Below the pieces are notes generated by a model. The model worked only from the letters and a program-made list of their open reading frames with translations, was not told the origin of the DNA and searched no databases. From Thermodesulfobacteriota bacterium (GTDB lineage: Bacteria; Desulfobacterota_D; UBA1144; Nemesobacterales; Nemesobacteraceae), in NCBI GenBank assembly GCA_965202785.1, contig OZ241855.1:576001-640000 (forward strand): a DNA stretch of 64,000 nucleotides. Reading direction: 5' to 3'. Every line of letters begins with the position of its first letter. The stretch's first letter is position 1. Made by a program: the position numbers and the translations under genes. This document shows, piece by piece, positions 1 through 45,636 of this stretch.

Positions 1-301
1 TTGAAACCCTCTCAACTCCTATGTGCACTGTCGCGTGCTCGGCAACGGAAGCGTGGCCGTAGTTAAGAACCCACTTCTCGTGGAACTTCTCCGCCCTGTC
101 CCTCCCCATTTCCTGCTCCCTTATTACGGTGTCTATGTTTTCCCTGAAACTTTTGGGGCTTCTGCTTACGTAGGCGAAGATGACGGCAACGACTTCCTCG
201 GGAATGTTGCTTATGGTGTAGATGTCCCTGTCGAGATTGGAAACGTAGCGTTCCATCTCACGGGCAACGTCTTCATCATCAATTTTTATCTCGGTGGACA
301 A
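1..301 (-). CDS. thyX: FAD-dependent thymidylate synthase ThyX, N-terminal part (runs off the window start)
   Basis: Not in the ORF track. Manual translation from TTG at 301 gives MSTEIKIDDEDVAREMERYVSNLDRDIY...FAYVSRSPKS...FHEKWVLNYGHASVAEHATVHIGVERVS; YGHxSVAEH...GVExVS is typical of ThyX. Confidence 0.85.
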   Translation of the reverse strand, partial: MSTEIKIDDEDVAREMERYVSNLDRDIYTISNIPEEVVAVIFAYVSRSPKSFRENIDTVIREQEMGRDRAEKFHEKWVLNYGHASVAEHATVHIGVERVS

Positions 302-338
302 GCCTGCTCTCCCGTTCCCCTCCCGTGGCTCCCGCGGT

Positions 339-1103
339 TCAGGAGACCGTATGGGTTTCCTTGAGTTTATCAACTATGTAAGGCATGACCTGGCTCGGGC
401 TTCCGTATATGACGGCGCTTACGTAATCGTCGGCCGGGGTTTTCCTCTCGCCGATAATAACGACCTTGTTCCCCTTGTTCATGACCTGGAAGGGAAAGGA
501 CGCCACGGGCTCGATCTCCAGATTCGCCCCGACGATTATGAAAAGATCGCAGTGCTGAAGCCTCATCCAGGACTCCCTTATCTCCCAGTGGGGAAGCGGC
601 TGTCCCGGAAAGGACAGCGGAGGCTTCATCTGATCGCTCTGGCATTCCTTGCATTTCGGAATGCCGGTCTTGCTGTCCTCAAGGGAAAGCAGTATTCCGT
701 CGGTGCGGTAATCGTTTCCGCATTCATGGCAGTGGATCCAGTTTATCGTCGAGTATATCTCTATTATTTTTTCGCTGCCGGTTTTGCTGTGCAGGCCGTC
801 GGCCGCCTGGGTAAGAACGCAGTCGACGTTGCAGAGAAACTCCATCTCGTAAATGGCTTCGTGGGCAGCAGAGGGCTGAGCCTCCGAGATTCTGGGATAA
901 AAATCCTTTATCTTCTCCCAGTACTCTCTCCTTACCTCCGGGCGATTTTTGAATTTTCCTATGTCGGGATTGAAGCTCAGATCCGAAACGTCGGGCAGTC
1001 CGACTTCAAGAGAGAGTTCAATTCCCGTTAGAAAAACTATCTGAGAGGCTTCCCGGGCCCACTCGACCGTTGCCGAGAGCGCATCCTGTTCCTGCTCGCT
1101 CAT
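339..1103 (-). CDS. Sir2/CobB-family sirtuin-like protein with degenerate catalytic motifs
   Basis: Sirtuin layout: IVFLTG, TQAADGLH, Zn ribbon CHEC...CKEC, FPGQPLP, DLFIIVG. GAG, FR, QN and the catalytic HG are substituted. Confidence 0.85.
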   Translation of the reverse strand: MSEQEQDALSATVEWAREASQIVFLTGIELSLEVGLPDVSDLSFNPDIGKFKNRPEVRREYWEKIKDFYPRISEAQPSAAHEAIYEMEFLCNVDCVLTQAADGLHSKTGSEKIIEIYSTINWIHCHECGNDYRTDGILLSLEDSKTGIPKCKECQSDQMKPPLSFPGQPLPHWEIRESWMRLQHCDLFIIVGANLEIEPVASFPFQVMNKGNKVVIIGERKTPADDYVSAVIYGSPSQVMPYIVDKLKETHTVS

Positions 1104-1251
1104 TTCAGGTTTTGATTATAACCGCTTGCGTTGACTGTCCGCAAATTGATCGCAGCGTGGCGATGCCGGGAGAATTCAGGGTGTGAGGACCTTCTCCATC
1201 TATAAATTCATTCCGTCAAAAACCGCCGGGAAAAAGCCGTCAACCACACAA

Positions 1252-1272
1252 TTAAATCGATTTAAATCGATT
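1252..1272. promoter_or_regulatory. Candidate operator: perfect 18-bp palindrome AATCGATTTAAATCGATT
   Basis: Two overlapping palindromes (1252-1265 and 1255-1272) in a divergent intergenic region. Confidence 0.35.
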
Positions 1273-1303
1273 GCGGTGCAGAGTACAGGTAGAATATCGC
1301 TTC

Positions 1304-1624
1304 GTGGGCACAAAACCTAAGGAAATAAACGAATTTACCGAAAAAGCTCTTCAGATCGTCTGGGACACCGGTGAAGAAAGCATATTCTTTTACGAAGAAC
1401 TCAGGGAGATCTGCCCCTGCGCCACCTGCAGGAGGCTCAGAAAAAAAAGCAGAACCGGGAAACTCCCGTTTAAAAAACGGATACCCCTCGGAAAAAGCAG
1501 CATGGCGCCGGAGAAAATAGAGTACATCGGGAATTACGCCATAAGGTTCATAGGCGAGAACTGGTGCGAAACCGGATTCTATACCTTCGACTTTTTAAGG
1601 AAAAACAGCGTTTCGGGCGAGTAA
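1304..1624 (+). CDS. DUF971 / GBBH-like N-terminal domain protein
   Basis: LQIVWD...LREICPCATC...IGNYAIRF...TGFYTFDFLR pattern; GTG start assumed. Confidence 0.8.
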   Translation: MGTKPKEINEFTEKALQIVWDTGEESIFFYEELREICPCATCRRLRKKSRTGKLPFKKRIPLGKSSMAPEKIEYIGNYAIRFIGENWCETGFYTFDFLRKNSVSGE

Positions 1625-1642
1625 CGTCCCCGCAGAGGAAAA

Positions 1643-2509
1643 TTACGCCCGTCGCGCGCTTATGGAAAGCCACTTTCTGGTGACAAAGTGGTCGCCGTCC
1701 TCATTCACTTCCCCGTGGAGAAGAATCGCCGGCTCGACGGCGTTTTTCATAGCATCGGAAACGGCCTCATCCGGATAGCCGTGAAGGGCGCCGGCGGCAT
1801 ACTGCTGAAAAGAGCTTATGTATTCCCACGCTTCTTTCGTAAGATCAGCGGCGAATTCCTGAGCGTCAACAAGGTCAAGTCCCACTTGGCCCACCAGCTC
1901 TTCGTAGTAGGAGCGCGGGTGGAACTTTGCGGCTTCGGCTTTCCTCTCGACCTTTACTCTTTTCACTCCCTGTTTTCTCAGGAACTGGACGGCGCTTCTC
2001 ACCTGGGTTCTGTAGAAAGGTATGGTGTCCTCGGGTCTTGCCCCCTCGTAAAAAGAGGTGTTGAAGAAAAACCAGCCTCCAGGCTTAAGCGCTTTTTTGA
2101 TCGCTTTTAGGCTCTTGAGTTGTTCCTCTTCGGTAAGGTAATGTATGCCGTTGCCCCATATAGCCACGTCGAGGCTTTTCGGAGGCAGATCAAGATCCTG
2201 TATGGTTGAATTGATAAGAGTCAGCTTGTCAACCTCTTTCTCAAGCCTGCGCTTGGCAAGTTTAAGAGCGCCTGCCGACTGGTCAAGGCAGAACACCGCA
2301 GACTCCTTTAGATTTGCGGGAAGCATTTCGAAGAAAAGCTGCGCCATGGTGCCCGCGCCTGTAGCGATGTCAAGGAACCTGTCGAGACTCTCCACCCCTC
2401 TATTAACCATTATCTGGATCCAGCTTCTGGTTATATCGCCGTTTACCTTTCTGTACTCCTCGGTATCGGCAAAAGGCTCATAGTTGTAATCTTCCATATG
2501 CTTTTCCAT
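1643..2509 (-). CDS. Class I SAM-dependent methyltransferase
   Basis: Motif I FLDIATGAG, LDQS, and LKPGGWF. Confidence 0.85.
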   Translation of the reverse strand: MEKHMEDYNYEPFADTEEYRKVNGDITRSWIQIMVNRGVESLDRFLDIATGAGTMAQLFFEMLPANLKESAVFCLDQSAGALKLAKRRLEKEVDKLTLINSTIQDLDLPPKSLDVAIWGNGIHYLTEEEQLKSLKAIKKALKPGGWFFFNTSFYEGARPEDTIPFYRTQVRSAVQFLRKQGVKRVKVERKAEAAKFHPRSYYEELVGQVGLDLVDAQEFAADLTKEAWEYISSFQQYAAGALHGYPDEAVSDAMKNAVEPAILLHGEVNEDGDHFVTRKWLSISARRA

Positions 2510-38488: not shown

Positions 38489-39700
38489 ATGTCTAAGAAC
38501 CTTCCGGGCATACAGGAGACCCGAGAACTTCTGAAGAAGAAAAAAGTGGTTATCGCCGGGGTGGGCGAAACCGAACAGGGAAAAATCCCGGATAAAAGCT
38601 CCTTTCACTTCCTAAGCGAAGCTTCCAAGCTCGCGATTGAGGACGCGGGAATTAAAAAAGACGACGTGGACGGCCTGGTAACGGCCTTCTCCCTCGTGGA
38701 ACACACCTTCATGCACTGCACCACATTTGCCGACTACTTCGGCATGAACCCGAGATTTTTCTCCTCGGTCGCGGTGGGTGGAGCCACGGCGGTGTGGATG
38801 GTGGCGGAAGCCGCCATGGCAATAGCCTCGGGGCAGGCTGAAGTGGTACTTTGCGTAAGGGGGGACAACACCCTCTCGGGAATATCCTCTTCGGGGATGC
38901 TCGCCCTTATAAGGGAGATGTGCCACGCGGAGTTTGAGTTCCCCTACGGACTTACGACTCCCGGGGGATACGCCCTTGCGGCGCAGAGATACCTCCATGA
39001 CTGGGACAGCCGGAGAGAACATCTCGCCGCGGTTGCGGTAACCATGAGAAAGCACGCCGCGGACAAGGAAAACGCCATGAACAAGGATCCCCTCTCAATA
39101 GAGGACGTCCTTAATTCAAGGGTCATAGCGGAGCCTCTTACCAAGTATGACTGCTCGATCATCTCCGATGGGGGAGCGGCTTTCATAGTGACTACGGAGG
39201 ACAAGGCGAAGGAGCTCGGTATAGAGAACGACCTTGCCTACCTCTGGGGAATGGGACAGGGATACTCCCACCAGTACCTCACCACTCTTGAGAACCTTGA
39301 CCAGATATACAACGCTGTCGAGCGATCGGGGGAGAAGGCGTTCACCACGGCGGGGATAGAGCCAAGGGACGTTGACATAGCGTTTCTTTATGACTGCTTC
39401 ACCATAACCGTTCTGCTTGAACTTGAGGGGCTGGGTTTTGTTCCCAAGGGAGAGGGGGGAGCGTTTGCTCTTGAGGGAAGGATGGAGATAGGGAAGGACC
39501 TTCCGGTGAACACCCACGGGGGACTGCTCTCCCAGGCTCACCTGGGGGCCATGCATCATGTTGTGGAGGCCACTCTGCAGCTCAGGGGGGACGCGGGATG
39601 TCGGCAGGTTGAGGACCCCGAGGTGGCGGTTGTGCATGGAAACGGAGGGATAGTGTCGGCTCACAGCACGGTGGTTCTTGGGAACCAGCCGATTAATTAA
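38489..39700 (+). CDS. Thiolase-superfamily protein (SCP2/Ltp2-like), lacking the nucleophilic Cys
   Basis: IAGVGET, VAVGGAT, SDGGAA, YDCFT, VNTHGGLLSQAH. Confidence 0.88.
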   Translation: MSKNLPGIQETRELLKKKKVVIAGVGETEQGKIPDKSSFHFLSEASKLAIEDAGIKKDDVDGLVTAFSLVEHTFMHCTTFADYFGMNPRFFSSVAVGGATAVWMVAEAAMAIASGQAEVVLCVRGDNTLSGISSSGMLALIREMCHAEFEFPYGLTTPGGYALAAQRYLHDWDSRREHLAAVAVTMRKHAADKENAMNKDPLSIEDVLNSRVIAEPLTKYDCSIISDGGAAFIVTTEDKAKELGIENDLAYLWGMGQGYSHQYLTTLENLDQIYNAVERSGEKAFTTAGIEPRDVDIAFLYDCFTITVLLELEGLGFVPKGEGGAFALEGRMEIGKDLPVNTHGGLLSQAHLGAMHHVVEATLQLRGDAGCRQVEDPEVAVVHGNGGIVSAHSTVVLGNQPIN

Positions 39701-39722
39701 CACAAACAAGGAGACAGAGAAG

Positions 39723-40148
39723 ATGTCAGAAGAGAAAAAAGCGTATAACAAGCCTTTGCCTGAGTTCCGGCCCGAGACGAAGCCGTTTTGGGAAGCTGCC
39801 AGGGAGCACAAGCTGGTTATCCCTAGATCAAGGGAGACGGGGGAGTTTTTCTTTTACCCGAGGGCTCTTTCCCCTGGAGGGGACATGAGTGAGGACATAG
39901 AGTGGGTTGAGAGCGAGGGACGGGGGAAGGTGTGGACTTTTTCCATACACCACATGGGACCATCGAAAGCCTACAAGGGTGAGCCTCCTTATGTAGTGGC
40001 CCTTATCGAGATGGAAGAGGGAGTGAAGATGATGTCAAACGTCATTGACGTTGACCCAGGTGAAGTGACCATCGGCATGGAAGTGCAGGTCTGCTTCGAT
40101 GACGTTACAGATGAGGTCACCCTCCCCAAATTCAAACCTGCCGGTTAA
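39723..40148 (+). CDS. DUF35 OB-fold protein (ChsH2 C-terminal-like) with Zn ligands absent
   Basis: PLP...PFWEAA, YPR, WVESEGRGKVWTFS, PYVVALIEMEEG, LPKFKP. Confidence 0.88.
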   Translation: MSEEKKAYNKPLPEFRPETKPFWEAAREHKLVIPRSRETGEFFFYPRALSPGGDMSEDIEWVESEGRGKVWTFSIHHMGPSKAYKGEPPYVVALIEMEEGVKMMSNVIDVDPGEVTIGMEVQVCFDDVTDEVTLPKFKPAG

Positions 40149-40163
40149 GAAAGGAGAACGAAA

Positions 40164-40616
40164 ATGCCAAGAATTTTTTACGAGGACCTAAACGAGGGAG
40201 ACGAGCACAAAAGCTCAGGTAGAACTGTTACTGAAGCTGACGTCGTCAACTTCGCGGGACTTTCCGCAGACTACAACAACATGCACATAGACGAGGAGTT
40301 CGCCAAAAAAACCGTGTTCAAGACAAGAGTAGCTCACGGCATGCTGGTGACTTCCATAGCCACGGGCCTCTGGTTCACCATGCCGAGGCTGGCGACCGTC
40401 GCCTTCATGGGTCTTGAAGACTGGAGATTTTCGGGAGCCGTATTCCCGGGTGACACGATTCACATAACGAGAAAGCTTGTCGAGAAAAGGGAGCACAAGC
40501 GTCCGAACATGGGATTCTTTATCTTCGAAGTAAACGTATTTACCCACAAAGACGCTGAAAAACCCGTCCAGAGGGGAAAATGGGTGATTCTCGTTCAGAG
40601 AAAAGAGGAAGGATAG
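40164..40616 (+). CDS. MaoC-family dehydratase
   Basis: RTVTEADVVNFAGLSADYNNMHID, RVAHG, VFPGDTI. Confidence 0.92.
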   Translation: MPRIFYEDLNEGDEHKSSGRTVTEADVVNFAGLSADYNNMHIDEEFAKKTVFKTRVAHGMLVTSIATGLWFTMPRLATVAFMGLEDWRFSGAVFPGDTIHITRKLVEKREHKRPNMGFFIFEVNVFTHKDAEKPVQRGKWVILVQRKEEG

Positions 40617-40701
40617 AGACTCTGGAATCTGCTGACTTCGGCTGATACACGAAACTCAAACCCACATCGAAGTCAGAGAACCGACGAGGCAAAAAGAGCA
40701 A

Positions 40702-40775
40702 ATCGGGAGAGAAGGGGATTTTGCGATTTCGCCTCTCCTGTGCCGTCGCGTATACGGGTCCGTACGCAACGGTTC
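40702..40775 (-). ncRNA. Group IIC intron-like domains V and VI (3' end)
   Basis: Minus strand reads GAA-CCGTTGC-GTACG-GACC-CGTAT-AC-GCGACGG-CAC-AGGAGAGG...CCTTCTCTCCCGAT: a fully paired DV with AC bulge and a ...CCCGAT terminus. Confidence 0.75.
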
Positions 40776-41030
40776 GAAGAAGGCATTTAATTTTCTTTCA
40801 TTTTTATTTGGACTTTCCACCCATTCAGCCGAGTGTCCGTCCCAGAGCAGTGCTCAAATGTGCCCACTGAACCGCCTATCCAAGCCACCGGGCTCTTGGC
40901 TTGGCGACAGCTTTGCGCATCTCACGAGCGTCGACAAAGATAGCTTGGTTATAAAAAACACCCTTGATCGGTCAGTTTTTTCCGAGTCCCGGGAGACACG
41001 GATATTTGCGAAAGAATTTTCTTCTCCTGT

Positions 41031-42494
41031 CTAAACGCGTTTTCTCAAGAAAACGGCCGAGAACAAAATAGATGCCATCAAGAATAGGTTGAACAAAGCG
41101 CTTCGAGGCGTATCGGCGGTTGCGGTGATCGCGCATCCCCCATCATCCATCCTCATCGCCTCATCCTCCTTGCAGTATTCGGCACTGTCCAGATAAATTC
41201 CCGAACCGACAATGTAATATTGTGGAGGCGCACCGAGGGCGGCAAACCTACTAGGTGTTATGTCTATCACCTCGATGTAACTTTTCTTGATCGAGAGGCC
41301 AGGAACACTGTTCTTCTCAATATAGTCCTCAATACGGGTACTGGGGTCTTCGGGGTTGGCCCAGTGATATGTGACGAAACCGCCGTTTCCCTCTGCTAAA
41401 TCTGCGAGGTTCCCGCTTCCATCTGTCACTACCCTGCGAAAAGCGTCCCAGACAATTCTTCCATCACACTCAAACGGGTCCGGATCTTCTAATCCGACGC
41501 TCAGACCATGAAGATCAAAATCCAGCCCGTTTATAATCGAGATGCCCTGAACCGGGTCCAGCATGAAACTGTATATGGAACCATCTTTGAAATCCCCGGA
41601 GGCATAACATGATATTGTTTTAAAGCTTTCTGAAATGAATTTATTTTCAAGTTCCTCTCTAGCATCAGGACTAGCAAGACCCGGATTTTCTGTTATTATC
41701 CGGAGCGCCGCATCAGACCGTTGTGCCTTAGATTTCTCAGCGATTTCTTTTACATGCTGTACAAGGAGATCTTCTTTCCTTTGCGGGTCTGCCTCATCAT
41801 TGACCTGCTTGGCGGTAGTACTAAGTCTGAAATCCTCAGTTCCACAGTCAGGAGTGTCTTTGTCGATTACATCATAGTCGTCTCTCGCGTGATGAAAGCC
41901 TATGACGTTCGTCACAACAATATCAGCAACGGGGGTAACCACACCGATTCCACAAGCCACTTTGTTCTCTCCATTATCATTATAATCCACGCACACCGGA
42001 TCAGTATTGCCTGGGAACAATCCCGAATCAAGCAAGGTCTGTATGCTTCCGGTCGTCGTGCCGTTGGCATTTTCAAACCCGTAAGAAGTGATATATTTTC
42101 TGCCGTACAGATCGGGATATCGACTGTGATTTGGTATATACCCTTCGGATGTTATTCCTATGGAGTAAATATCGTTGTGATGGAAGACTCCATCGCCACC
42201 ATCTTCTTCTGTTTCTCTCGTTCGTTTCAAGAATATCGTGAATTCTCTCGACCGCTCCGATTTGTTGAGATCCGGATCTGTTGCAATTTGGTTGATGTGT
42301 TCTGACAGATGAAGAACAAGATTCTTGATACTGTCTCTATTTGCAATATCGGTGATATCCTTCGCATTTATATCGAGTTCTGCACTGTGTGTATAGCCTT
42401 TGTACTGATGAGCGGATGCTTCAATACCGAACGAAAAACCAGAAACCGCCGCTAAAAACAAACTCAAAATTATTCTACGGATTATTAAGCTCAT
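41031..42494 (-). CDS. Secreted Cache-domain protein with a C-terminal GGC-TM sorting-like tail
   Basis: Signal peptide (EASA/H); FKDGSIYSFMLD...GFVTYHWANP...KKSYI...IVGSGIY resembles sCache_2; tail DDGGCAITATADTPRSALFNLFLMASILFSAVFLRKRV. Confidence 0.7.
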   Translation of the reverse strand: MSLIIRRIILSLFLAAVSGFSFGIEASAHQYKGYTHSAELDINAKDITDIANRDSIKNLVLHLSEHINQIATDPDLNKSERSREFTIFLKRTRETEEDGGDGVFHHNDIYSIGITSEGYIPNHSRYPDLYGRKYITSYGFENANGTTTGSIQTLLDSGLFPGNTDPVCVDYNDNGENKVACGIGVVTPVADIVVTNVIGFHHARDDYDVIDKDTPDCGTEDFRLSTTAKQVNDEADPQRKEDLLVQHVKEIAEKSKAQRSDAALRIITENPGLASPDAREELENKFISESFKTISCYASGDFKDGSIYSFMLDPVQGISIINGLDFDLHGLSVGLEDPDPFECDGRIVWDAFRRVVTDGSGNLADLAEGNGGFVTYHWANPEDPSTRIEDYIEKNSVPGLSIKKSYIEVIDITPSRFAALGAPPQYYIVGSGIYLDSAEYCKEDEAMRMDDGGCAITATADTPRSALFNLFLMASILFSAVFLRKRV

Positions 42495-42733
42495 ATCTGA
42501 GAACCTCCCTCAACATATCCTTTTCCTCTTCCAAACCTCAGCAATATGGAATGACCGTTCCTTGCTACGAATATTCTACAGTTTTAAATTTTTTGTCAAA
42601 ACACCTATAAAAATAGGCATCTGCGATGTAATGGTTTTCGGGGTTCAGGTTTCAGGAACCAGAGCGGTATCAGCGTAACACCCCGACACAAGCGACACCA
42701 TACCTCCGGGTTTCCGATCATGCTCGGCACACT

Positions 42734-42768
42734 AAAAAAAGGGGGGACTCGAAAGTCCCCCTTTTTTT
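42734..42768. terminator. Strong intrinsic terminator downstream of the AmiS/UreI gene
   Basis: AAAAAAAGGGGGGAC-TCGAAA-GTCCCCCTTTTTTT. Confidence 0.9.
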
Positions 42769-42789
42769 GTAAACCACCTGTAAACCGGC

Positions 42790-42960
42790 ACTCCCTTGCT
42801 TCAAAGACAAGGAATTATTTGCTCGGCGACTGCTACTTGAAGCTGAAGTCGCCTCGCAAACTTCCGTTAAGTTTCGGACTGCCTAGCCGAAACAAAACTG
42901 ACTCTTAAAAGTCCCGTGCTTCCCGTTCATCCCGACACCGGGATTTTTCAGAAAAGCACG
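42790..42960 (-). other. Multi-hairpin structured 3' UTR or candidate ncRNA
   Basis: Consecutive inverted repeats CCTTG/CAAGG, GGCGACT/AGTCGCC, GTTTCGG/CCGAAAC, CGTGCTT/AAGCACG with nested ATCCCG/CGGGAT. Confidence 0.4.
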
Positions 42961-42973
42961 ACAGTATCAAACC

Positions 42974-43498
42974 TTAGCCTGGTACTCCACCGAGAGGATT
43001 CCACTTCTCTGTAAGCAGAAGCATTCCCGGTATCAACAGAGTCACTATCGACTCTATTATGAACAGATAGGCTATCGGCTTGCCAAGATCCTGTCCCTGC
43101 GAGAACGCGAGGAAGCAAAGAAGTACCAGCAAAGCCCATGCCCAGCAGAAGTACGCAAAGTACGCAAGCCCAAGTGCCTGGAAATGAGCCCCGTACCATA
43201 TAAACACCACCGTTGCGAAAAGACAGTACACTCCAAGCCCTTTCGCGTCATGTCCGTGTACGAATACCGCGTAGACTATCAGGTATATCAATGCAAATAC
43301 CGATACTAGCGCGGTAGCCGCCGTAAGACCCAGGGTGTGCAGCTTCCAAGCGGCAATCGCTATGAGAACGCCGACTCCAAGATTGAGCACGCCCACTTCC
43401 TTCGCTCCGGTTTTACCCAAAAGGGTCATTCCGTTCGCGAAGAACACAAACCCTACGAGCAGCAAAACGTAACCTAACAAAGCTTCTATTGGAACCAT
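42974..43498 (-). CDS. AmiS/UreI family amide/urea channel
   Basis: LLLVGFVFFANG, KEVGVLNL.VG, FALIYL, KGLGVYCLF, WAWA.L, TLLIPG; about 6 TM segments. Confidence 0.85.
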   Translation of the reverse strand: MVPIEALLGYVLLLVGFVFFANGMTLLGKTGAKEVGVLNLGVGVLIAIAAWKLHTLGLTAATALVSVFALIYLIVYAVFVHGHDAKGLGVYCLFATVVFIWYGAHFQALGLAYFAYFCWAWALLVLLCFLAFSQGQDLGKPIAYLFIIESIVTLLIPGMLLLTEKWNPLGGVPG

Positions 43499-43630
43499 AC
43501 TAACCATACCTCCTGTATGAGATCATAACCGTTCCTGGTCCCAAGACAGGGACCGCTAATTATGCTTTTATCACAGGAGCGTATTCAATGTCAAGCGTAA
43601 ATTACAACCGCAACTCGGGGCAAAACGACA

Positions 43631-44128
43631 TTACCGGGAAGGAATAAAATCCAAAGCGACCGAGTTTATGCAGTATCGAAGCCCCGTTGGAGGAGGACCA
43701 TCTTTGAAAACATGTCCCAGGTGTTCTCCGCATTTACTTGATACTACCTCATAGCGCCTGAGTCCGAAGGAATTGTCGGGGACTATCCTCACGGCGTCCT
43801 CGCTTACGGGCCTCCAGAAACTCGGCCATCCGGTTTTTGAATCGTATTTATGCTCGGAGGAAAAAACGGGCTGTCCGCAGCCGGCGGTCACGTATACCCC
43901 TTTTTCCTTGTTGTAAAGCAGTTCCCCCGAGAAGGGAGCTTCCGTGCCTTTTTTCCAGAGCACTTTGTACTCAAGGGGCGAAAGCTTCTTTTTCCACTGC
44001 TCCGTGGTAAGTCCCATTATCCCCTCGGGCGGCCTCTTCTCAGCCTGCTCGCCTCCCGCGGGCGAAAACGGCGAAAAAACAAGGACCGAAACCGCAAGGA
44101 TAATCAAGAATATTCCGCGCACAATCAT
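43631..44128 (-). CDS. msrB: Peptide-methionine (R)-S-oxide reductase with signal peptide
   Basis: GTEAPF, KYDSKTGWPSF, HLGHVF.DGP, RYCINS. Confidence 0.95.
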   Translation of the reverse strand: MIVRGIFLIILAVSVLVFSPFSPAGGEQAEKRPPEGIMGLTTEQWKKKLSPLEYKVLWKKGTEAPFSGELLYNKEKGVYVTAGCGQPVFSSEHKYDSKTGWPSFWRPVSEDAVRIVPDNSFGLRRYEVVSSKCGEHLGHVFKDGPPPTGLRYCINSVALDFIPSR

Positions 44129-44241
44129 GAAGATGACCTCTTACTTCTGAATATAAACATCCGCGGTGTTCATGTAAAGTGTCTTAAAATCAGGTATCTA
44201 AAAACAAAAACCCTGCGCGAAGCGCGGTGGAGGTAACAAGC

Positions 44242-45636
44242 ATGCCGAAAACACTTGAGGTTCTCGGAGTCTACGACGAAAAACTCATAAGAAAAATTCC
44301 CGTGACCAGCAAAAAGGAGATGCAGAAAGCGCTTTCCGAGGCAAGGGCTCTTGCCGATAGGCCTTCAGAGAGAATTCCCGTTCCGCAAAGAATAGAGATC
44401 CTCGAGCGAACCAGGGCGTTTGTAGAGAGAAACTACGACCGTATCGTAGCGGACGCCGCCGCAGAGGGAGGAAAACCCCTCATTGACACCAGAGCCGAGA
44501 TTACGAGGGCCATAAACGGAATAAAGGTGGCGGCCGAATCCCTCTCAAATCTCGGAGGAGAGGAAATACCCATGGGCTCAAACGCCGCTTCCCTTAACAG
44601 GATGGCATTCACTCTCAGGGAACCTATAGGGGTCGTGGTGGCCATCTCGGCCTTCAATCACCCTTTTAACCTCGCCGTTCACCAAGTGATACCAGCGGTG
44701 GCTGTCGGCTGCCCGGTAATCATAAAACCCGCGCTTAATACCCCCCTTTCCTGCCTTAACCTGCTTGAAGCTCTCTACGAGAGCGGTCTTCCGGAAAAGT
44801 GGGCCCGCCCCGTTATAGTGGACGATACGCTCGCCGAGGCGCTGGCCACCGACAGAAGGGTCAACTACCTTACATTCATCGGCTCCGCCAAAGTGGGATG
44901 GCATCTGAGGTCAAGACTCGCACCGGGAACGAGATGTGCTCTTGAGCACGGGGGCGCGGCTCCCGTGATAGTGGAGCGCGACGCCGACATAGACGACATG
45001 CTTCCCCTTCTGGCAAAAGGCGGCTTCTACCACGCGGGCCAGGTCTGCGTTTCCGTGCAAAGGGTTTTCGCACAAAGCTCGGTAGTGAAAAAGGTCGCCA
45101 GGGGACTTAAAAAACTCGCCCTTGAGACAAAAGTCGGAGACCCGATGAGCGAAGACACGCAGATAGGCCCCCTTATAAACCCGAAGGAGGTTTCGAGAGT
45201 CCATACCTGGGTAAGAGAGGCTTTGAGAAAAGACGGAAAGCTTCTTTGCGGAGGCAGGAAAATAGGGAAAACCTGCTACGAACCCACGGTAATCCTTAAC
45301 CCGAGCCAGAGTTGCAGGCTATCGCGCGAGGAAATCTTCGGACCCGTTATAGCCGTTTACTCTTATGAGAAAACGGACGATGCCATAGAACTGGCAAACA
45401 GCCTCCCCTACTCGTTTCAGGCGTCGGTATTCACCAAGAACATCGATACCGCCCTTGGGGCCGTGAAGAAGTTAAAGGCGGCCTCAGTGCTCGTAAACGA
45501 TCACACCGCGTTCCGGGTCGACTGGATGCCTTTCCGGGGAGCCGGGCACTCGGGAATAGGAACGGGAGGAATTCCGTACACTATGCGCGAGATGACCCAC
45601 GAAAAACTTATGGTGATAAGGTCATCCGCGGTATAA
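44242..45636 (+). CDS. Aldehyde dehydrogenase family protein
   Basis: AFNHP, FIGS, LEHGG, GQVCVS, EEIFGP. Confidence 0.93.
   Translation: MPKTLEVLGVYDEKLIRKIPVTSKKEMQKALSEARALADRPSERIPVPQRIEILERTRAFVERNYDRIVADAAAEGGKPLIDTRAEITRAINGIKVAAESLSNLGGEEIPMGSNAASLNRMAFTLREPIGVVVAISAFNHPFNLAVHQVIPAVAVGCPVIIKPALNTPLSCLNLLEALYESGLPEKWARPVIVDDTLAEALATDRRVNYLTFIGSAKVGWHLRSRLAPGTRCALEHGGAAPVIVERDADIDDMLPLLAKGGFYHAGQVCVSVQRVFAQSSVVKKVARGLKKLALETKVGDPMSEDTQIGPLINPKEVSRVHTWVREALRKDGKLLCGGRKIGKTCYEPTVILNPSQSCRLSREEIFGPVIAVYSYEKTDDAIELANSLPYSFQASVFTKNIDTALGAVKKLKAASVLVNDHTAFRVDWMPFRGAGHSGIGTGGIPYTMREMTHEKLMVIRSSAV

Follow-up and report, generated by a model that had tools for sequence, protein, structure and literature searches.

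The hairpins at positions 40702–40775 of the window (the whole stretch of DNA analysed, 64,000 nucleotides) very probably belong to the 3'-terminal relic of a class C (IIC) group II intron, which comprises the end of domain IV, domain V (DV) and domain VI (DVI) and no longer works. The element is an ordinary decaying relic, the sole oddity of which is an intact host gene between the surviving intron ends. An intron of a family still active in other species of this Candidatus Dadabacteria genus inserted on the minus strand, directly 3' of the intrinsic terminator behind an AmiS/UreI-like gene, the usual type of class C target. What remains of this intron are its first 15–31 nt and its last ~98 nt, with the ribozyme body and the gene for the reverse transcriptase (RT)/maturase gone, and the interior is now host-derived, with an intact Cache-like gene, a promoter-like site and a dehydrogenase fragment. 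The relic RNA should be able neither to splice nor to move. A full-text search returned no papers on Dadabacteria and group II introns, and the class C family found here in Candidatus Dadabacteria has not been described so far.

The relationship to this family was established by comparison with other genomes. In a search of 40 related genomes, 77-nt DNA matches to window positions 40777–40701 were found at 70–73% identity at four loci, two in one genome of the same genus and one each in two others. The gathering score of the Rfam model RF00029 (cut-off 40) was reached at three of these four loci with 40.1–41.8 bits, group-II-D1D4 Rfam matches of 55–134 bits were present at three of the four, and the intron copy of G024 codes for a protein of 467 aa with a score of 399.6 bits against TIGR04416 (group II intron reverse transcriptase/maturase). 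All four of the relatives' introns start with GUGUGCCGAGCAUGA immediately 3' of a hairpin and a U run. The window as a whole gave no Rfam match at gathering thresholds, and no group II model of Rfam matched at E ≤ 10 either in 39500–44500 or in a 451-nt search (40600–41050), with only chance matches to sRNA and miRNA families. A covariance model (R1) was built from 16 non-identical copies of the relatives, including full-length copies that encode the RT/maturase and excluding the window. It matched the window at 40798–40701 on the minus strand with 57.4 bits (E = 4.4e-14) over model positions 1–94 of 94, and this match was the only one in the 1.64 Mb genome. Because R1 matches end to end and finds nothing else in the genome, the homology of the 3' end to the intron family is secure.

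The element is homologous to bona fide members of the class in both sequence and structure, and we place the 3' relic, from the end of domain IV through DV and DVI to the 3' end, at 40701..40798 (minus strand) from the R1 and blastn matches; the intron ends in ...CCCGAU, finishing at 40702 on the minus strand. The first-pass annotation, made from the letters alone, had identified the hairpins as DV and DVI of class C, and the relatives-only model and the full-length relatives support this identity. It had also made its reading depend on a significant covariance-model score and on covariation among homologs. A convincing score came from the family-specific model (57.4 bits) but not from RF00029, which gave no match at E ≤ 10. 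The structure of the family does covary: in an alignment that was fitted to the model and included four rows of another intron class, 93.7% of the cells were paired compared to 80.3% in shuffles and 43–53% with the partner slid, and 22 of the 26 pairs have changed on both sides. A working or domesticated element is not supported.

DV and DVI lie in a 414-nt gap that separates two convergent genes, one for a MaoC-like dehydratase (plus strand, end at 40616) and the other the 487-aa ORF described below (minus strand, 42494..41031). In the predicted folds of the minus strand, DV is a 30-nt hairpin at 40772–40743, followed by a linker at 40742–40740 and by DVI, a second and weaker hairpin, at 40739–40705. 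Each of the pairings listed for DV in the first-pass annotation (7 bp, an AC bulge, 5 bp and a GACC loop) can form. In the minimum-free-energy fold, which differs from that register, a 2-nt bulge separates a lower helix of nine base pairs from an upper one of three, capped by the GACC loop; this is the register that RF00029 imposes on a relative's copy, and in it the bulge is AU in the window and AC in the relatives. The altered residues that had been pointed out are all real when set against the family copies: the triad reads CGU where the relatives have CGC, a G–C pair replaces the G·U wobble, and DVI has C at the position of the branch A, UAU having become UCU. The bulged A within UAU is present in 11 of the 16 family rows. 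All 12 of the 12 DV pairs are kept, yet the triad, the wobble and the bulge depart from the conserved DV. The usual IIC DV sequence as given in the first-pass annotation is close to the variant of one relative, L067.

When the insert was compared by blastn with the 1,867-nt full-length intron, only the first 15–31 nt and the last 77 nt matched. No group-II-D1D4 Rfam match to domains I–IV was found at E ≤ 10 in 39500–44500. In the genome, which was searched as one contig of 1.64 Mb with 96% completeness, RF00029 gave nothing above 13 bits, RVT_1 gave no match and no protein-coding intron copy was found. A tblastn search with the intron protein of G024 revealed no RT remnant in the window and nothing better than E 0.11 in the genome. 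Since domains I–IV and an RT are absent from both the insert and the genome, no splicing of any kind should be possible, hydrolytic splicing included, which contradicts the earlier suggestion that any splicing would be hydrolytic. ORF-less bacterial introns normally accompany related protein-coding copies, according to PMC4424553.

It is exceedingly improbable that the element is instead a functional member of a divergent intron subfamily that splices by hydrolysis, as the first-pass annotation had it. Such a reading could draw on the kept DV pairing and on the proper 5' GUGUG and 3' AU termini at a class C target site, but it would have to accommodate a 5' part of only 15–31 nt, domains I–IV that go undetected at E ≤ 10, a genome without reverse transcriptase, changes in the triad, the wobble, the bulge and the branch site alike, and a DVI fold no better than shuffles. 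The insert does resemble class C introns in that it lies directly after a terminator hairpin, has a 5' GUGUG and a 3' ...AU, and contains a homologous DV–DVI. It differs from them by the loss of domains I–IV and of the intron-encoded protein, by CGU for CGC, the lost wobble and AU for AC, by a DVI without the bulged A, and by scores below every Rfam threshold. Target site and termini excepted, it lacks every defining feature of a functional class C intron.

The boundaries of the insert were examined in the relatives. The whole insert covers 2,031 nt (40702..42732, minus strand), carries the 5' and 3' termini of the intron at its edges and is missing in relatives. In the syntenic loci of G011, G001 and G018, window 39125–40702 is contiguous with 42734–43000 (the junction in L006 is 1501|1503). 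The two flanks are adjacent, forming an empty site, in 18 of the 35 other same-genus genomes, and the insert is in none of the 35; the remaining ones matched one flank or neither. Both boundaries of the insert are fixed because these empty sites exist. A ~98%-identical strain from another study's metagenome (run X3) has the insert at the identical site, and the empty-site joint 40611>42734 is likewise present on a contig of that metagenome.

Insertion behind terminators is described for class C introns (PMC4424553, PMC3898094), and the site fits this rule. Directly upstream of the insert, 3' of the AmiS/UreI-like gene, lies an intrinsic-terminator hairpin with a U tract (42736..42766, minus strand; stem 42761–42742), the target motif of the class and the sole terminator-like site on the minus strand of 40500–43000. 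The 5' terminal relic (42702..42732, minus strand) consists of the 15 nt GUGUGCCGAGCAUGA and of 16 further nt that have diverged. The 15-mer is identical to the 5' end of the family, opens every relative's intron and occurs once in the 1.64 Mb genome; by blastn the 5' relic has 15/15 identity to G007 and G011a and 25/31 to G024. The hairpin with its U tract, GUGUG at 42732 and ...CCCGAU at 40702 agree with descent from a class C intron (5' GUGYG, 3' AY).

The DNA between the intron ends has a different origin. The 487-aa ORF (41031..42494, minus strand) is intact, belongs to a multi-copy family of the genus and sits at the position of an intron-encoded protein, yet it has no similarity to the intron RT. 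No Pfam or NCBIfam model matched it at E ≤ 0.01, and its match to dCache_2 is itself sub-threshold (E 0.35). Because it aligns to both halves of P0053 (E 6e-27 and 3e-24), a homologous protein that carries dCache_2 and sCache_2, we call it a Cache-like and putatively extracytoplasmic protein, secreted or anchored; its sequence suggests a signal peptide and, at the C-terminus, a hydrophobic anchor. Its homologues number 55, one of which, from the near-identical strain, is 98% identical and the next nearest 51%. The family has at least three members in this genome; besides the ORF in the window, members were noted at L016 2–757 and L013 2130–3056. The C-terminal tail of the family is conserved, with acidic residues, G-C, a hydrophobic stretch ending in LFSAVF and basic residues. 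This tail resembles a signal for sorting or anchoring, although no NCBIfam model matches it.

The other segments of the interior are shorter. A 60-nt remnant of an aldehyde dehydrogenase pseudogene (40821..40880, minus strand) was recognized by its nucleotide match to the interior of a 504-aa aldehyde dehydrogenase gene, at 73–77% identity and with 15/60 differences from the consensus; its translation shares ~14/20 residues, with the frames read by eye. The full 504-aa gene follows paralogues of the ORF in L013 and L016, including a second locus of this genome. Two short segments of dispersed, non-intron repeats (42616..42709, minus strand) have matches in other genomes of the genus: 42667–42616 matches six places in G042 and others at 81–87%, and 42709–42665 and 42696–42667 have matches in G050, G023 and G011. 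Overall, these repeats have identities of 81–97% and occur also in G049, G024, G041 and G003; no Rfam family was found in five loci that share them. A promoter-like site precedes the ORF (42570..42599, minus strand; TTGACA-18-AATATT, a consensus match only, at 10/12 positions), which is weak evidence because four such sites were found in the region against 2.9 expected from shuffles. The AT-rich stretch around it, 42582–42609, is the most variable part in comparison with the X3 and X2 strains, with small insertions and substitutions.

An intact gene between the two intron ends is contrary to what simple decay predicts. The host DNA could have entered by replacement after the insertion, by recombination through intron copies, or with a cargo-bearing intron that was later left without domains I–III. 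We consider it distinctly unlikely that the Cache-like gene and the dehydrogenase fragment were already in domain IV of a ribozyme-competent ORF-less intron, in place of the RT gene, and that this intron was mobilised in trans by the protein of a related intron to the terminator site before a single internal deletion removed domains I–III. Such a history would account for true termini that flank host DNA and for an ORF with the orientation of the intron and the position of its protein, and ORF-less copies and internal deletions that keep the ends are recurrent in the genus. The dehydrogenase fragment (25%) and the 3' relic (~30%) are also similarly diverged, as if freed from selection together, and their divergence looks too old for decay in place. 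Domain IV cargo is feasible in the engineered introns described in PMC3898094, but cargo longer than 1,000 nt sharply cuts their mobility in the same account. No second copy of the chimera was found, with the nearest homologue of the ORF beyond the near-identical strain being only 51% identical; no 5' end was present within ~4.4 kb upstream of five other 3' fragments; and the promoter-like site and the dispersed repeats in the interior fit an insertion at the DNA level equally well. The wider statement that the intron either carried the host gene as domain IV cargo or acquired it during reverse transcription, and delivered it to a new terminator site, commands little credence as well. Template switching by the intron RT was considered as the origin of the chimera and found unsupported, since the activity described in PMC3898094 is end-to-end and would not on its own produce a switch ~100 nt into the intron and back.

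Among the titles and abstracts listed by a literature search, none described host genes or other cargo carried naturally by bacterial group II introns, the cargo described in PMC3898094 being engineered. Engineered targetrons are similar to the insert in having a non-RT gene flanked by the intron's 5' part and DV, but as described there they keep the whole ribozyme, which is absent here, and the resemblance is therefore only positional. Had intron mobility placed the host gene where it is, nature would offer a counterpart to the delivery of cargo by engineered introns, although the present data cannot demonstrate such an origin; the cargo or transduction reading, if true, would amount to natural gene transduction by a bacterial group II intron whose ribozyme was later stripped.

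Returning to the reading of a decaying relic, we compared it with the other copies in the genus. A census with the model across 36 genomes of the genus located 24 places, spread over 17 of the genomes; 20 of these places were aligned, and four further canonical copies were left out. Sixteen of the aligned copies belong to this class C family, and four to another class with an AGC-type DV. The 16 family copies comprise three full-length introns with the protein gene, three ORF-less introns, L073 (ORF-less with further deletions), one 146-nt form and eight 3' fragments including the window; among the other seven 3' fragments, six have DV and L071 does not. A full decay series of the intron family thus exists within the genus. 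The four copies of the other group II class (L074–L077, in G008, G022, G043 and G020) have an AGC-type triad and a longer DV loop and scored 29–34 bits with the model.

Some loci of the family deserve mention for themselves. One orthologous site is occupied by a 625-nt ORF-less intron (L014/L062, G011), a 245-nt form (metagenome contigs L053 and L055) and a 146-nt form (L070, G015). Only the 5' and 3' parts are left in the 146-nt form. In the 245-nt form, ~380 nt that lay between two CCGAU repeats are missing; L053 and L055 agree in the 3' flank and differ in the 5' flank. In G042, the tandem ORF-less copies L045 and L046 lie 779 nt apart at ~526–532 kb, and five copies were counted in that genome by the model and six by the pattern scan. 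A second intron copy in G011, L021 (G011:C1:132800–136000, 264–2407, minus strand), has proper ends ~2.1 kb apart, and its interior contains a 360-aa ORF on the opposite strand that, read from its translation, looks like a transposase of the IS110 family.

These shortened forms share with the window that the ends are kept and the interior is lost. However, the ORF-less and internally deleted derivatives (625 nt in G011, 245 nt in the metagenome and 146 nt in G015) consist of intron sequence only, while in the insert of the window 1.9 kb is foreign and much less of the intron is left. No 5' end was found within ~4.4 kb upstream of the five other 3' fragments for which upstream DNA was fetched; these are plain 5'-truncated pieces, unlike the copy in the window, and the arrangement of ends around a gene is unique to the window in this sample of five. 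In a survey of 90 Enterobacteriales genomes, 111 fragments corresponding to 55 distinct copies were counted, and orphan fragments were described as common (PMC3522654). The relic in the window resembles the orphan fragments of that account in being a decayed fragment with no active counterpart in its own genome, but differs from them as described there by keeping both termini ~2 kb apart around an intact host gene.

The age of the relic poses a problem for decay in place. Of 84 positions compared with the modern consensus, 24 are different in the relic (22–23 of 77 by blastn). At four-fold sites of the flanking genes, the divergence of this genome from the closest of three relatives is 31%, counted over both branches. 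Since these two values are about equal, neutral decay in place from the modern consensus alone seems too slow, as judged from these sequence divergences, and an older source lineage or an import of the region would be needed. The second bulge position is U in all eight diverged copies and C in all six canonical copies, which suggests that the relics probably descend from an older version of the intron; an older source removes part of the age discrepancy. Of the earlier proposal of a divergent subfamily or a domesticated RNA, the divergence stands, in the form of this older diverged group marked by the bulge U, but a working or domesticated status is not supported. The relic in the window has no excess of derived states shared with any of the seven other diverged copies (p 0.12–0.93). 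Despite the ~30% divergence of the 3' relic, the 5' end has no change in its first 15 nt. The decay series and the older wave marked by the bulge U fit the picture of extinction and recolonisation of bacterial introns presented in PMC3522654.

One observation that counts against the relic reading is the kept pairing of DV, which the first-pass annotation had taken as an argument against random decay. A degenerate pattern found 22 other DV copies (10 genome-contig and 12 metagenome-contig loci), all of which read CCGCCACGUACGGACCCGUACGCGUGGUGG, apart from a single C>U in one of them. The variant of the window is absent from these copies, with the limitation that the pattern was varied only at positions where the window differs and more divergent lineages are therefore missed. 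Compared to CCGCCACGUACGGACCCGUACGCGUGGUGG, DV of the window has eight changes, all transitions, that leave 12 of 12 pairs intact: two pairs are altered on both sides, two G·U pairs became Watson–Crick pairs and one G–C became G·U. In simulations, the probability that 12/12 pairs are kept after eight random changes was 0.07–0.08 with transitions only and 0.03–0.04 with the hand-counted transition share. This statistic is suggestive, not strong. The pairing score after eight substitutions is the best among the eight diverged copies; the other seven with DV retain 8–11 of 12 pairs after 3–11 substitutions, and DV of the window is the top of a distribution rather than an outlier of a different kind.

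The X3 strain offers a further comparison. It has three differences from the relic: a G>A in the triad that breaks a DV pair, one broken DVI pair and one restored DVI pair. There is no sign of constraint, since three differences in the ~98-nt relic compare with 13 in the 860-nt piece that includes it. With full DV pairing no more than mildly improbable under drift (0.03–0.08), a decayed DVI and a DV pair broken in the X3 strain, the argument from kept pairing is not supported. The bias towards transitions was likewise discarded as a sign of structural selection: it is 20/22 in the relic, but 11/15 in the neutral dehydrogenase fragment, and transitions occur in the unpaired linker too.

We regard it as distinctly improbable that the DV hairpin was exapted, i.e. 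kept by selection after the death of the intron as a stabiliser of RNA 3' ends or as a termination or pause element, whether in the minus-strand 3' untranslated region of the Cache-like gene or as the plus-strand complement behind the MaoC operon, which the insert has separated from its terminator. The 12 intact pairs, with two double compensatory changes and two conversions of G·U to Watson–Crick, would agree with such a role, but values of 0.03–0.08 are weak and one such case among eight diverged copies is unsurprising. The DV fold has −15.3 kcal/mol (z −3.5), with one of 200 shuffles as stable and 93% of the stability of the canonical hairpin, whereas the adjoining DVI has decayed: with 10 of 14 pairs left, its fold reaches −10.0 kcal/mol (z −1.2), no better than shuffles, compared to −23.6 kcal/mol (z −3.7) in a relative. 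The plus-strand complement of DV folds as well, at −12.2 kcal/mol, but its z of −1.9, with 10/200 shuffles as good, makes it indistinguishable from shuffles. In our own reading, the G>A variant of the X3 strain would remain a G·U pair on the plus strand, but it breaks the DV pair on the minus strand. On neither strand did a promoter and terminator scan predict a terminator-like site at DV or DVI, and DV is not immediately followed by a U tract.

We return to the decaying relic, in which DV would be a hairpin still stable after transition-rich drift that started from an older version of the family, and DVI would already be falling apart. Both hairpins would be at most passive parts of the 3' untranslated region of the transcript of the Cache-like gene. 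More generally, a DV look-alike that is isolated and well paired gives no evidence that a ribozyme works or has been domesticated; the empty sites and the census of the family were decisive here.

The DNA next to the insert has a feature of its own. The 64 nt right after the stop codon of the MaoC gene (window 40619–40682) are 79–88% conserved in several relatives and hold a 9-bp inverted repeat (CUGACUUCG / CGAAGUCAG, minus strand) with a 27-nt loop, and their conservation exceeds the expectation for a spacer.
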